The notes below the pieces were generated by a model. The model saw nothing but the letters and a program-made list of their open reading frames with translations. It was not told the DNA's origin and did not search any database. Positions 12,069 to 19,296 of a DNA stretch of 40,133 nt are shown here, one piece after another. Origin of the DNA: a virus. Its lineage: Duplodnaviria > Heunggongvirae > Uroviricota > Caudoviricetes. The position numbers and the translations under genes were made by a program. The stretch is from the IMG/VR virus record IMGVR_UViG_2778261168_000005. The stretch is one strand, 5' to 3'. How positions within the stretch are numbered: position 1 is the first letter of the stretch; each line of letters starts with the position of its first letter.

Positions 12069-12155
12069 CGTAATTACTAATCCGGGGCTATATTTCCGGC
12101 GCGCCAGCAAAATCTGGCGTCGGGATTGGCGTCCCGGATGTTTACGGAGCGATAT

Positions 12156-12178
12156 GAGACGCGCCCGCGTCTTTTTTC
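12156..12178 (+). terminator. intrinsic terminator
   Basis: GAGACGCG-CCC-GCGTCT hairpin followed by TTTTTT. Confidence 0.5.
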
Positions 12179-12340
12179 ATATCGTTTGCACAGTCACATT
12201 CGCGATTTATGGCGGGCTGTGTGGGGGAGCCGAAAGGCTCGCCGGTTTCCGTACCCGGTTACGCCAACCCTGCACAGTTCGCCACCAGTTCGATTGGCGT
12301 CGTTGGTGGCGATAATTTCCAAATGTACGGAGTTATCGTT

Positions 12341-12918: not shown

Positions 12919-13101
12919 ATATCGGGTGAACATTGCCACCGGAGATAAAATAATTTGCGGTGAAAGGGAAGTTAAGTAGAATTGCTGCGGGTGCTTGAGG
13001 CTATCTGCCTCAGGCATGAACACCAAAAGGCAGATAGAGAAAAGCCCCAGTTAACATTACGCGTCCTGCAAGACGCTTAACATTAATCTGAGGCCATATC
13101 T

Positions 13102-13161
13102 ATGCGACACATAGAGATTAGCCTCTTACGGACCGAAAGGTCAAGGAGAAGCAGGCTATGA
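13102..13161 (+). CDS. short leader ORF translationally coupled to hok (mok-like)
   Basis: 19-codon ORF whose stop (TGA) overlaps the hok ATG (ATGA); known hok loci have an overlapping mok frame. Confidence 0.35.
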   Translation: MRHIEISLLRTERSRRSRL

Positions 13162-15340: not shown

Positions 15341-15700
15341 ATGCGTATAGAGTTTGTTTTGCCTTACCCGCCGACGGTGAACACCTACTGGCGTCGTCGT
15401 GGCAGCACATATTTTGTATCAAAAGCCGGTGAGCGTTATCGCCGTGATGTGGCGCTTATTGTTCGCCAGCAGCGACTGAAATTAAACCTGTCCGGAAGGC
15501 TGGCGATAAAGATCATTGCAGAGCCGCCGAATAAGCGCCGTCGTGACCTGGACAATATTCTGAAAGCACCAATGGATGCACTGACACATGCGGGGTTGCT
15601 TATCGACGACGAGCAGTTTGATGAAATTAATATTGTGCGCGGTCAGGTCGTTCCTGGTGGTCGGTTGGGGATAAAAATCACAGGGCTGGAGTGCGCATGA
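15341..15700 (+). CDS. rusA: Holliday junction resolvase RusA
   Basis: 119 aa; matches RusA pattern (PPTVNTYWRRRG..., KRRRDLDNILKAPMDALTHAGLLIDDEQ, GGRLGIKITGLE). Confidence 0.85.
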   Translation: MRIEFVLPYPPTVNTYWRRRGSTYFVSKAGERYRRDVALIVRQQRLKLNLSGRLAIKIIAEPPNKRRRDLDNILKAPMDALTHAGLLIDDEQFDEINIVRGQVVPGGRLGIKITGLECA

Positions 15701-16386
15701 ATAACCAGTATTTACAGTTTGTTCGTGAGCAGCTCATTATCGCCACCGCCGATTTGAGTGGGGCAACAAAAGGTCAGCTTGAAGCCTGGCAGGAGAATGC
15801 CATGTTCGATACAGGGCGTTACAGGCGTAAAAAAATCCGGTACCGCGATGAAGTGACTGGAAAAATGATCACGCGGGATAATCCACCAATCCCGGGGAAA
15901 CAATCGCTGGCGAAGGGGACGTCAATTCCTCTGGTAAGTCAGGTTGAGTTTTCGACATCCTCATGGCGACGGGCTGTTCTGTCTCTTGAAGAACCTCATA
16001 AAACCTGGTTGTTGTGGTGTTACAGCGGAAATATTTGCTGGGAGTATCAGGTCACCATAACCCGCTGGGCATGGGAAGAGTTTAAGGCTCATTCTGGCAA
16101 CAGGAAAATTGCAGAGAAGACACGGGAACGCCTGAAAAAATTAATCTGGCTGGCGGCGCAGGCAGTAAAAGCAGAACTTTTTGGCGGGGAAGGTTATGAA
16201 TACCAGGATCTGGCATTACTGGCGGGAGTGACAACTAAAAACTGGTCCAAAACATTTACTGGTCACTGGGTTGCAATGAAACACATTTTCCACCAGCTGG
16301 ATAGTGAGGCTTTATTGTTGGTAATGAGGACGCGTTCGGAACAAAAGGCGGCATTTTCAAAGCAAAGTATTGCAAAAGTAGATTAA
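15697..16386 (+). CDS. putative late-gene antiterminator (Q-like)
   Basis: 229 aa from ATG 15697 overlapping rusA stop (ATGA), SD GGAG; sits between rusA and a strong promoter plus terminator. Assignment by synteny, not recognised sequence. Confidence 0.45.
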   Translation: MNNQYLQFVREQLIIATADLSGATKGQLEAWQENAMFDTGRYRRKKIRYRDEVTGKMITRDNPPIPGKQSLAKGTSIPLVSQVEFSTSSWRRAVLSLEEPHKTWLLWCYSGNICWEYQVTITRWAWEEFKAHSGNRKIAEKTRERLKKLIWLAAQAVKAELFGGEGYEYQDLALLAGVTTKNWSKTFTGHWVAMKHIFHQLDSEALLLVMRTRSEQKAAFSKQSIAKVD

Positions 16387-16474: not shown

Positions 16475-16617
16475 GCGCCCAAAAAGCGGCACAGGACGTT
16501 AAACGCGCTGGTGGTTGCGGATACGAGGCTTTCAGCTTGCTGGCTTTTTCGACAAGAGTTATTGGTATGTCACGTTAACCAGAAAAGGGAAAACACACCA
16601 CTGGTTCGAGGCCATGT

Positions 16618-16929
16618 ATGTATCACAGAAGAGACTTACTTAGTGAATATAAAGAGCTGCGCCAGTATTTTTGTGTGCTAGTGTTATTACCGTACACTGA
16701 TATGTGGACGAATAAGCCAGATCAATTTTACCCGGGTAAGTATTCTTGTGAAAAAACATCCGTAATTTGTGCTGGTAGTCATTCAGTGGACCTGGTAGCG
16801 GATTTCTTCATTGGTTCAGGCTCAGTCATAAAAGCTGTTATGGCGTCAGGGAGTTGTGCGACGGGCGCTGAACAGAAAGCTGAGAGTTTTCAGAATATAA
16901 TGCAGTACATCAGTGATCATTTCGGGTAG
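16618..16929 (+). CDS. hypothetical protein (cargo gene)
   Basis: 103-aa ORF, SD GAGG 7 nt upstream; no recognisable family. Confidence 0.45.
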   Translation: MYHRRDLLSEYKELRQYFCVLVLLPYTDMWTNKPDQFYPGKYSCEKTSVICAGSHSVDLVADFFIGSGSVIKAVMASGSCATGAEQKAESFQNIMQYISDHFG

Positions 16930-17157
16930 AGATAAAATATTAAGTAAGTCACAATTTTGTCGATTAATAATTGTTTTATTTAAGTGCGATTTGTTAAAAA
17001 GTTACAGCATGGTGAATCCCCCTCAGCGGCGGGGCATAATGACCGTCAGGTTGGGTTGCATTAGCGATAGTAGCAAGCAGCGGATTCTGTCTGGTCATTG
17101 CAGAATTCACCGGGAGGCACCCGGCACTATGACAATGATGGTAGTAAATGCGTATAC

Positions 17158-17185
17158 AAGCCCCTCATCCTGAGGGGCTTTTTTA
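17158..17185 (+). terminator. intrinsic terminator
   Basis: GCCCCTCA-TCC-TGAGGGGC followed by TTTTTT. Confidence 0.6.
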
Positions 17186-17230
17186 TTATGTGTGGTGAGT
17201 CTGAGGGGGGATGAATCAACTCATATGCTG

Positions 17231-17560
17231 TCATTTATATAATCCATACGGACATATTGTCAGCATACACTGGTTGTTGGGGCATATACTTTTTGTTTTT
17301 ACTGATTTTCCCGGGCAATCTTTGTTGTTTTTGATGAGGTACCAGAATCTCTTGTTAAATGGAGTTACGTTGTAAATTGTTAATGGAATTTGTTTATTAT
17401 TCATGATGATACCGGAATTAATCGGTGTGAAAGTGCTTCCCGGTGGCAGGAATACATCTGACTGATACCAGAGTATCAATTTTATTTTATTCCATACTGT
17501 AGAAAACGTTATTCCACTTGATGAGCATATAACAGTGTCAATCACTATCCATTCCATCAT
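17231..17560 (-). CDS. hypothetical protein in AT-rich island
   Basis: 109-aa ORF, SD GAAGG about 9 nt upstream; local GC clearly lower than flanks (by eye); candidate -10 TATACT upstream. Confidence 0.4.
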   Translation of the reverse strand: MMEWIVIDTVICSSSGITFSTVWNKIKLILWYQSDVFLPPGSTFTPINSGIIMNNKQIPLTIYNVTPFNKRFWYLIKNNKDCPGKSVKTKSICPNNQCMLTICPYGLYK

Positions 17561-18201: not shown

Positions 18202-18232
18202 GCCAGCCAGTCTCTGGTGGCTGGCTTTTTTT
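18202..18232 (+). terminator. intrinsic terminator
   Basis: GCCAGCCA ... TGGCTGGC 8-bp stem followed by TTTTTTT. Confidence 0.55.
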
Positions 18233-18285: not shown

Positions 18286-18367
18286 CCGTCACTAACTCAT
18301 CGGGTAAGAGTGCATAACACGTATTGTTGTTTTGTGGTGCGGGGTTCGAGTCCACGGTGACGGTCCA
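18286..18367 (+). tRNA. tRNA-like element, probably a degenerate tRNA pseudogene
   Basis: Hand-folded: 7/7 acceptor stem (CCGTCAC / GTGACGG), U8, 4-bp D-stem with A14, G18G19, A21, T-arm CGGGG-TTCGAGT-CCACG, then T and CCA; but 27 nt lie between D- and T-arms (22 expected) and no canonical anticodon loop can be drawn. Terminator follows. Confidence 0.35.
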
Positions 18368-18394
18368 TTTGTAACGGTAAATATACTTTTAACA

Positions 18395-18416
18395 GGCTCG
18401 CTTCGGCGAGCTTTTT
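18395..18416 (+). terminator. intrinsic terminator after the tRNA-like element
   Basis: GCTCGC-TTCG-GCGAGC followed by TTTTT. Confidence 0.6.
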
Positions 18417-18862
18417 GTATGAGTTCAACCCGGTTTATATTGGCGAAAAAAGGGCGCGGCTGTCGGATTAAAGCCGCGGGACAAAGTCCATGAAGAAGAA
18501 TAAGCATCTCTCTCCTCCAGAGAGACGTATTTATATTACTAAGCATTAAAAATGGTTTAAATCCTCAGATTAACCTTAATTTCAGGTAAGTCTAATTTCA
18601 TTTCTTTGCGCCACGTCCGGCGCACATCAAAAACCACAGAGCCTTTCAGGGGTGAGCTTACGGCATGGTCAGTGTGACTTTTTCTTTGGGCTGGCCCCCC
18701 GGGCGGAGGCTCATCCACCAAAAGGAAACGTCACTGATGTCGGTGCTGGCAGATGGTGTGCTGGTGGCAATGGCGCTGGTCGTCCTCCTGCCTTTACTGC
18801 GCAAATCTGAATAGCACCACGCAAAAGGCATCTGCGGGTGCCTTTGACGGGGTGTTTTTTAC

Positions 18863-18884
18863 GGGCCGCTGGTGGCCCTTTTTT
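18863..18884 (+). terminator. intrinsic terminator upstream of the lysis genes
   Basis: GGGCC-GCTGGT-GGCCC followed by TTTTTT; a second hairpin (AAGGCA...TGCCTT) lies at 18825-18844. Confidence 0.5.
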
Positions 18885-18903: not shown

Positions 18904-19296
18904 ATGTCTGAACCCTTATCCGGTTCCGGCACGGCTGTGGCGCTCGGCGGGGCGACGGTATTCGGGCTGTTTACCGGAACGGATTTCGGGATTGTGTTTG
19001 GTGCATTCGCAGGGGCGTTATTTGTGGCAACGATGCCGCAGGCGCTTTCAGCCTGGCGTGTGGCGGCGCATTTTCTGGTGTCGTTCATTATCGGCGTACT
19101 GGGCGCAGAGGTTCTGGCATCCTGGCTGGTAAAGCATACAGAGTTTGACGGTGCACCTGTCGACGCATTGTGTGCAGTACTGGTGTCAGTGGTGTCGGTG
19201 AAGATTCTCTCGTTCATCCACCAGCAGGATATTGCATCGCTGGTGTCCGGCCTGTTCTCCCGCCTGCGGGGTGGAGGAGGCGGCAATGTTAAGTAA
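18904..19296 (+). CDS. putative holin (membrane protein)
   Basis: 130-aa ORF, SD AGGAG; Gly/Ala-rich hydrophobic segments; first gene of the lysis cluster, before the muramidase. Confidence 0.45.
   Translation: MSEPLSGSGTAVALGGATVFGLFTGTDFGIVFGAFAGALFVATMPQALSAWRVAAHFLVSFIIGVLGAEVLASWLVKHTEFDGAPVDALCAVLVSVVSVKILSFIHQQDIASLVSGLFSRLRGGGGGNVK

Follow-up and report, generated by a model that had tools for sequence, protein, structure and literature searches.

An 82-nucleotide tRNA-derived element with a non-canonical anticodon arm in the late-operon leader of a lambdoid prophage: a probable non-decoding relic of a phage tRNA family

The stretch of DNA analyzed here (IMG/VR record IMGVR_UViG_2778261168_000005; 40,133 nucleotides (nt), hereafter the window) represents a lambdoid prophage whose morphogenesis genes are phiP27-like, in which ARAGORN makes a single gene call, an 82-nt element on the plus strand at 18286–18367 that is related over its full length (77–80% identity) to annotated prophage genes for the transfer RNAs tRNA-Lys and tRNA-Arg. 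This element carries the acceptor, D and T arms of a tRNA around an aberrant anticodon arm, and is in our reading probably the non-decoding relic of a phage late-region tRNA. The antiterminator Q gene lies upstream of it (15691–16386, plus strand; Pfam Phage_antiter_Q, 298 bits) and two holins and an endolysin begin downstream at 18904, which places the element in the leader of the Q-dependent late operon. A terminator scan found intrinsic terminators on the plus strand that bracket it, one upstream at 18202–18232 and the other, GGCUCGCUUCGGCGAGC followed by Us, in a 3' trailer (18368–18420) that is the constant companion of the element. The latter hairpin (18394–18413, followed by a T run in the DNA) is the downstream terminator that had been claimed in an earlier interpretation made from the letters of the window alone (the sequence-only reading).

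Read from 5' to 3', the element is CCGUCAC-UA-ACUC-AUCGGGUAA-GAGU-G-CAUAACACGUAUUGUUGUUUUGUGGUG-CGGGG-UUCGAGU-CCACG-GUGACGG-U-CCA. The 5' strand of the acceptor stem, CCGUCAC (18286–18292), forms 7/7 pairs with GUGACGG (18357–18363), and the stem is fully paired in all nine distinct 82-nt variants that we compared, including two (L021 and L015; loci are given by our own L numbers) in which a U4.G pair keeps the pairing. U8 is present, and the D arm (18295–18311) has 4/4 pairs (ACUC/GAGU) and a 9-nt loop, AUCGGGUAA, with A14, G18G19 and A21; the first pair of its stem is A-U in the element vs. G-C in the canonical relatives (GCUC/GAGC), both sides having changed with the pair kept. The T arm (18340–18356; CGGGG/CCACG) has a loop, UUCGAGU, that fits the canonical UUCRANY pattern, and the element ends in a discriminator U and an encoded CCA (18364–18367) that are identical in all relatives with the CCGUCAC body. 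Direct reading of the sequence and comparison of the variants thus agree with the sequence-only reading on the perfect 7-base-pair (bp) acceptor stem, U8, the D arm, the T-loop (TTCGAGT in the DNA), the discriminator and the CCA. The T arm, which it had described as intact, does have a canonical loop, but a G.A mismatch at the third stem pair (51:63) had been overlooked, and the stem has 4/5 pairs in the window copy vs. 5/5, with CCCCG, in most copies. Its statement that the segment between the D and T arms is 5 nt too long holds exactly, as this stretch measures 28 nt in the element vs. 23 nt in homologous 77-nt tRNAs. The segment begins with a 2-nt connector, G and C (18312–18313), in place of the single base at position 26 of a tRNA, the same connector being found in 77- and 78-nt relatives with an AUAAC/GUUGU stem such as that of Yersinia phage YeP1. 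It continues with an AUAAC/GUUGU stem of this YeP1 type around a 7-nt loop, ACGUAUU (18314–18330), and closes with a U/G-rich variable region, UUUGUGGUG, of 9 nt (18331–18339), which is 4 nt longer than that of the relatives.

In BLAST searches against 28 Gb, the whole element aligned with annotated 77-nt prophage tRNA-Lys(UUU) genes at 80.5% identity and with tRNA-Arg(UCG) genes at 77% (E = 5e-7 to 6e-6), the alignments showing the same body and a divergent anticodon arm that is 5 nt longer. Together with pattern scans of IMG/VR, they define a constant family body, CCGYCAY-UA-GCUC-A..GG..A-GAGC ... CGRGG-UUCGAGU-CCYCG-RUGRCGG-U-CCA, on which two 77-nt forms occur, tRNA-Arg(UCG) (the argN type of Stx phages) and tRNA-Lys(UUU). 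Its usual place is immediately behind tRNA-Ile2(CAU), for example in Ile-Lys-Thr-Gly or Ile-Arg-Arg clusters. The window type is found in relatives as a second, displaced copy approximately 650 nt downstream of the Ile-Lys-Thr-Gly cluster, and is solitary in the window. With the argN-type tRNA-Arg(UCG) and tRNA-Lys(UUU), the element shares the acceptor, D and T arms, the discriminator U, the CCA and the neighborhood between Q and the lysis genes; these tRNAs, however, have U33 and a purine at position 37 and stand in a tandem cluster, whereas the element has C33, U37, an unrelated arm 5 nt longer and a 9-nt variable region, and is a separate unit between two terminators that is missed by PGAP and Rfam. 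By homology and position, the element is thus assigned on sequence grounds to the lambdoid late-region tRNA family, as a displaced and structurally degenerate paralogue of a cluster tRNA downstream of Q in Stx-like and phiP27-like phages. Alignment to tRNAs of the ileZ, argN and argO type (ileZ and argO are the gene names annotated in phiP27), which the sequence-only reading had proposed as a check, accordingly identified it as a paralogue of the argN/Lys body and found a related long-arm form in the argN slot of phiP27. In relatives, a full methylase gene is directly followed by tRNA-Ile and the Lys or Arg tRNA. The window holds a remnant of an N6/N4 DNA methylase at 16618–16929 (approximately 45 C-terminal residues, 25.9 bits vs. 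a cut-off of 26.7), and since only this remnant is left, the cluster itself has been lost from the window by deletion, with the displaced 82-nt copy alone being kept.

C33 is also found in the most common prophage tRNA-Lys(UUU) with this body, in a loop CCUUUAA (L001:19309–19385, L143:2503–2579 and approximately 60 other loci). This tRNA is annotated as tRNA-Lys by PGAP, scores 44.4 bits with Rfam and was left unannotated by the depositors of phage vB_EcoM-606R7 (L143); this form could be related to nucleases that cut tRNA-Lys. An A51.C63 mismatch is fixed in its T stem (60/60 copies).

Could the resemblance to a tRNA be fortuitous, the ARAGORN call a false positive, or the segment a part of the 84-amino-acid open reading frame on the opposite strand (18292–18546)? 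The silence of the Rfam tRNA model and the poor fold and unstable isotype given by ARAGORN (see below) are what one would expect in that case. Nevertheless, in 300 random 40-kb sequences of matched composition ARAGORN made a single call, and the combination of acceptor stem, U8, T arm and NCCA occurred in 0/300 random windows vs. once in the real one. Because of these counts and of the full-length BLAST homology to annotated tRNAs, chance resemblance is excluded, and the judgment of the sequence-only reading that the element is too tRNA-like to be chance is upheld. The opposite-strand reading frame was rejected as coding, having no Pfam match and being open to frameshifts by the 1-nt indels seen in close relatives, and the 'hypothetical protein' annotated by PGAP under the match in strain CV839-06 sits upstream of the element without overlapping it, so that the probability we would assign to this whole set of explanations is vanishingly small. 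A remnant of an attachment site left by integration into a tRNA gene was also considered and discarded, as the element has the full length of a tRNA and both strands of the acceptor stem, and the only other match to a T arm of this type in the window (at 16603, with one mismatch) is within chance expectation.

Four models of the anticodon arm were compared on the nine 82-nt variants. Model A is the arm given above, with stem positions 29–33/41–45 and loop positions 34–40 of the element, and has 5/5 pairs in all nine variants. It is weak (−1.1 kcal/mol, one G-C pair), its register matches that of the YeP1-type relatives, and its loop, ACGUAUU, has C33, then G-U-A at the anticodon positions, then U37, and so lacks both U33 and a purine at 37. 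In this register the surplus bases are one at the 26/27 junction and four in the U/G-rich variable region. Model B (7-bp stem, 8-nt loop) has 6/7 pairs in all nine variants, with the mismatch at another place in L015, and Model C (nine pairs, 6-nt loop) has 8/9 pairs in the window type and 4/9 in L015, although in the window type it is thermodynamically the most favorable arm (−4.1 to −5.2 kcal/mol). Models B and C were rejected as the main fold, as their register differs from that of the canonical-length relatives, and are kept only as possible alternative conformations. ARAGORN labels the window element tRNA-Val(AAC), with a stem AGUGC/GUAUU and a loop AUAACAC, a fold that has a 3-nt spacer, a poor D stem, two G.U pairs in the anticodon stem and a 14-nt unstructured variable loop. 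It was rejected, since it sacrifices the good D arm and is broken by G36A in four variants (4/5 pairs) and in L015 (2/5). Among near-identical copies, the ARAGORN isotype switches between Val, Tyr(AUA) and no call, and the wobble-equivalent base of Model A varies between copies, being G in approximately three quarters of them and A in the rest. The anticodon arm can take at least three registers, and G-U-A is only one reading of it. The statement of the sequence-only reading that no 7-nt anticodon loop with U33 can be drawn holds only partly. It stands for the conserved register, which has C33, while ARAGORN does draw such a loop at the cost of the D arm and of five of the nine variants. With the D arm kept, every variant allows a 5-bp stem around a 7-nt loop, which is non-canonical in its C33, its U37 and its single G-C pair.

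The variable region of 9 nt forms no stem of its own and thus matches neither class I (4–5 nt) nor class II (at least 10 nt, with a stem). The corresponding region is AGGUG or UGGUG in relatives, UGUAUGGUG in L015, and UUUAGUA and UUUUGUA in L204 and L188, respectively. Expansions of the U/G run that resemble the one in the window also occur in relatives (GUUGUUGUA, GUUGUUUUAGUA), which points to slippage as the source of the four surplus bases there. The minimum-energy fold of the window copy, with its T-stem mismatch, is not a cloverleaf (z = +0.08), whereas the consensus and the A10 copy (see below) do fold as one.

Automated annotation deals poorly with this locus. The Rfam tRNA model (RF00005) gave no match to the element at its gathering threshold (29 bits), nor at E ≤ 10 in the 351 nt searched, and none to the copy in Escherichia coli A10, whereas canonical members on the same body score 44–56 bits. 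The lack of a covariance-model hit, which the sequence-only reading had named as a finding that would speak against a tRNA origin, is therefore a fact, but it is not a valid argument here, as the nine non-canonical members with this body that were tested likewise lack an Rfam tRNA match, for all their evident homology to annotated tRNAs. The locus was found at 97–98.5% identity in 16 of 5,426 complete E. coli genomes, and at 91% in strain A10; no tRNA is annotated at the element by PGAP in the 16 full-length E. coli copies listed, nor in A10. Species-representative genomes yielded 0 matches in our scan, the phage records of GenBank no close match, and the metagenome scan one match, identical to a known variant. 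In sum, the element fails three defining features of a canonical tRNA (anticodon loop, variable region and covariance-model score), and a real tRNA-derived locus is called tRNA-Val or tRNA-Tyr by ARAGORN on the strength of one base and skipped by tRNAscan-based pipelines and Rfam. Neither outcome is right, and a tRNA-like or pseudo-tRNA flag would be fitting.

The element is not alone in carrying an odd arm on this body. Yersinia phage YeP1 has a 78-nt form, labeled 'tRNA-Pseudo-TTG' by its depositors, with the same AUAAC/GUUGU stem and 2-nt connector and likewise a loop without U33, but with a normal variable region of 5 nt in contrast to the 9 nt of the element. An 81–82-nt form with the arm ACGAC-ACGAUAACAGG-GUUGU occupies the argN slot of E. 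coli OkiPb01716 (PGAP 'tRNA-OTHER') and is also found, unannotated, in the Stx2e phage phiP27; this Oki type has five surplus arm bases like the element, but they lie in an 11-nt loop and not in the variable region. The phiP27 copy (L144:2953–3033; AJ298298, about 17241–17321) is 81 nt long, stands between ileZ and argO just upstream of stx2e and has a damaged T stem (CGGGG/CCUGG). L015 holds an 82-nt form in the Lys slot. Rfam gave no tRNA match for the pseudo or undetermined tRNAs of YeP1, OkiPb01716 or phiP27. Pseudo-tRNAs of this cluster were previously known only in passing, from the YeP1 annotation and from a remark on 'pseudo' tRNAs in stx2i prophages in a 2026 paper (PMC13641118); we found no description of the present 82-nt form, and no record that we examined annotates it.

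A relaxed scan returned dozens of bodies with odd arms, which ARAGORN calls Lys, Arg, Gln, Cys, Leu, Ile, His, 'Stop' or '???'. These arms, at IMG/VR loci L145–L245 (e.g., the L162, L202, L169, L198, L204 and L179 groups), have loops of 6, 8, 9 or 11 nt with A33 or C33; some copies have 7-bp stems (UUUAGCC/GGCUAAG, UUGCUUC/GAAGUAA) with variable regions of 3–4 nt, and one is 'Stop(tta)' to ARAGORN. As the relaxed scans demanded an intact body, this pattern may partly be an artefact, and an unbiased sample of the family was therefore anchored on the neighboring tRNA-Ile2. In that sample, the body was intact in only 7 of 41 Oki-type long-arm copies and the T-loop lost in 24 of 41, while 30 of 113 Arg(UCG) copies were damaged, and wrecks included Lys copies without an anticodon arm or without a D arm and an argN/argO fusion. 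Examples of such wrecks are found at L258 (in the slot after tRNA-Ile2), L252/L291/L299 and the L332 group, among them the argN/argO fusion, joined at the anticodon loop, and Lys copies without anticodon arm; in Oki-type wrecks the T-loop has turned into GCGGGU. This frequent damage indicates that the tRNA family is under relaxed selection in many phages. Our own initial argument that a conserved body with a hypervariable arm betrays selection was withdrawn, since the scans had demanded the intact body and the Ile2-anchored sample held many broken copies.

Outside this family, a structural parallel is the bacterial Y RNA YrlA, which has tRNA-like acceptor, D and T elements with the anticodon arm substituted and resembles the element in this. 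However, the element has no Ro/Rsr-binding helix, YrlA has no match in the window at E ≤ 10, and no rsr gene is present in a syntenic annotated prophage; sub-threshold YrlA matches (25–28 bits vs. a cut-off of 69) lie beside tRNAs in two relatives.

Several observations on the window type itself weigh against a decayed relic. The copies examined came from 14 IMG/VR contigs, one metagenome contig and the RM10740 and A10 genomes, the latter two read directly, and represent three cluster contexts; every one of them keeps the 7/7 acceptor stem, the 4/4 D stem, a canonical T-loop and the CCA, and none is truncated. Changes in stems within the type tend to preserve pairing (acceptor U-A to U.G; T stem G-C to A.C to A-U), as does the double change of the D stem with respect to the canonical relatives. 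The most diverged copy, that of A10, has six changes and no broken stem, and its element and trailer are 93% identical to the window vs. 67–85% upstream. The 51:63 mismatch of the window copy is no sign of decay by itself, since A.C is fixed at this place in the annotated Lys(C33) tRNA, which suggests that a mismatch there is tolerated in the family. Finally, nucleotide diversity is 0.026 in the element vs. 0.046–0.068 in the flanking spacers, on too few variable sites to convince. Scanning from the 3' flank led to the same 14 loci, each with an intact body and with shallow divergence among them. The E. coli copies other than those of RM10740 and A10 are 98.0–99.3% identical over the 151-nt query. 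Among approximately eleven substitution events within the type, seven hit unpaired positions, one turned U-A into U.G, one turned G-C into A.C and was later restored to A-U, and one, the T-stem G.A of the window, is uncompensated. The Oki type, in which most copies have lost the T-loop, differs from the window type, in which none has lost the T-loop or acceptor pairing. The intact copies and the kept pairing weakly suggest some constraint, fitting weak purifying selection and a young age equally well.

Regarding expression, no sigma-70-like site was found on the plus strand between 18226 and 18285, in the 53-nt spacer 5' of the element, and A10 has a 40-nt deletion in the upstream spacer but retains the element. 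Four strong plus-strand terminators lie within 1.7 kb of the late leader (17158–17180, 18202–18225, 18394–18413 and 18863–18878), and 12 terminator-like sites were counted in the region vs. 2.5 expected from shuffles. The element would thus most likely be expressed by Q-mediated read-through in the lytic phase. In A10, the mosaic breakpoints fall at terminators and none within the element, and the sequence downstream of the trailer is not alignable.

Another possibility is that the element serves as a processing handle, at which cuts by RNase P and RNase E would punctuate the late leader or, in analogy to 3'ETS-leuZ in E. coli, free the trailer and terminator (18368–18420) to yield a small RNA of the Hfq type. 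The element, the 26-nt A/U-rich trailer and the terminator always occur together (a trailer-anchored scan returned only element-carrying loci), A10 keeps the block at 93% while its flanks diverge, and the late leaders of these prophages are rich in small RNAs, among them AgvB, AsxR and as many as five copies of STnc100. We nevertheless regard this role, proposed from analogy, as improbable, as the similarities of the trailer to Rfam models are weak, sub-threshold and derived from the terminator hairpin (isrB 21.5 bits, rsmX 21.7 bits), no target was identified, and conservation of a block in mosaic phages may reflect a recent shared recombination segment.

In the window, the late leader holds one STnc100 small RNA at 16978–17190 (110 bits); up to five tandem copies are found in relatives (L002:3703–4818, L198:1813–2927), and L005 has AgvB plus a sub-threshold AsxR match, the leader between Q and the lysis genes being dense in small RNAs and terminators in these prophages. 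In the early region, at 12088–12289 and 12989–13160, the Rfam families c4-a1b1, isrK and C4 antisense RNA occur together (51–78 bits), a group that corresponds to the P1/P7-type antisense control module, with a sok antitoxin RNA (108 bits) nearby.

A different view would see the odd arms on this one constant body, the element included, as products of counter-defence, either as hardened (here Tyr-like) decoders or as non-cleavable mimics; processing and recognition by enzymes would then account for the constancy of the body, and the arm could diversify freely. We consider this general view doubtful, and it takes two specific forms. In the first, the element would be a working non-canonical tRNA, a replacement decoder hardened against the anticodon nucleases of the host or of rival prophages, with the C33/U37 loop and the stem as escape changes. 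The loop in the conserved register shows G-U-A, the tyrosine anticodon, and retron-Eco7 PtuAB attacks host tRNA-Tyr(GUA); the cluster companions likewise match nuclease targets (Lys-UUU for PARIS AriB, Thr-UGU for P2 OLD), body and CCA are intact in all copies found, and the abundant annotated Lys(UUU) variant on the same body also has C33. Phage tRNA-Lys, tRNA-Thr and tRNA-Tyr are known to rescue cells from AriB, OLD and PtuAB, one protective tRNA-Thr(UGU) being that of phage 21, which is related to lambda (PMC12445682; PMC12409363; PMC11555353; PMC10264068). In T5 tRNA-Lys against PARIS AriB, T5 tRNA-Tyr against retron-Eco7 PtuAB and phage 21 tRNA-Thr against P2 OLD, the anticodon stem-loop is unlike that of the host, and the companion cluster tRNAs (Lys-UUU, Thr-UGU) share their exact anticodons with these published nuclease-resistant tRNAs. 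However, the published tRNAs have a canonical 5-bp stem and 7-nt loop and have been shown to decode, whereas the element lacks the canonical loop features. Moreover, its wobble-equivalent base varies, with A-U-A in several copies, and the pyrimidine at 37, the missing U33, the one-G-C stem, the unstructured 9-nt variable region, the absence of an Rfam tRNA match and the at least three possible arm registers all speak against a working decoder. E. coli tyrosyl-tRNA synthetase prefers A73 and a long structured variable arm, in contrast to the U73 of the element. A hardened decoder is therefore unlikely.

In the second form, the element would be a decoy or inhibitor that mimics a tRNA, the body recruiting a tRNA-binding defence nuclease or toxin, the remodeled arm escaping productive cleavage and the enzyme being titrated in lytic growth. 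Across phages, the slot of this body does carry many non-canonical arms, with 7-bp stems, A33 or C33, or loops of 6, 8 or 11 nt, joined to a body that is otherwise intact; expression of the element would be confined to late lytic growth, and no window-type copy has a broken acceptor stem or T-loop. Yet most of the arm diversity comes from search patterns for intact bodies, the unbiased sample being full of decay, no tRNA-nuclease gene was identified adjoining the element, its arm sequence is tied to no particular enzyme, and a literature search found no published RNA decoy of such a kind, all of which makes a decoy distinctly improbable. HepS and Gifsy-1 were followed up as a lead for a prophage RNA counter-measure and dropped, as the paper concerned shows evasion via a variant of the tail-tip protein and not via RNA.

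Beyond its homology, anatomy and genomic position and the frequent decay of its family in other phages, all of which are directly observed, the element is probably a non-decoding relic, as the sequence-only reading had supposed in preferring a decayed phage tRNA to one with an unusual loop, and this is the best-supported reading of the paralogue of the argN/Lys body. It is favored by the C33/U37 loop, the weak stem with one G-C pair, the unstructured 9-nt variable region, the varying wobble-equivalent base, the flipping ARAGORN isotype and, in the window copy, the T-stem mismatch and the minimum-energy fold other than a cloverleaf, and also by the lack of recognition by Rfam and PGAP, the decay within the family, the failure to find a promoter of its own and the terminators on both sides. 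A tRNA with the argN/Lys body would have been duplicated, with one copy displaced downstream of the cluster, and the anticodon arm of that copy remodeled by one extra base at the junction of the D and anticodon arms and four in the U/G-rich run 3' of the stem, the latter probably by replication slippage. The copy would be transcribed only when Q-modified polymerase passes the leader terminators in lytic growth, and since the body is intact, the transcript may still be trimmed by RNase P and the 3' processing enzymes, but it would no longer act as a normal decoder and would be passively carried along.

Taken alone, the element is probably an ordinary relic. It does draw attention to the tRNA slot that follows Q in lambdoid prophages, a place of fast turnover with many odd anticodon arms on one body, whose neighbors are the tRNAs Lys-UUU and Thr-UGU, now known to counter PARIS and P2 OLD. 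If it were true that some of these odd forms are selected, they would represent a new kind of counter-defence RNA.

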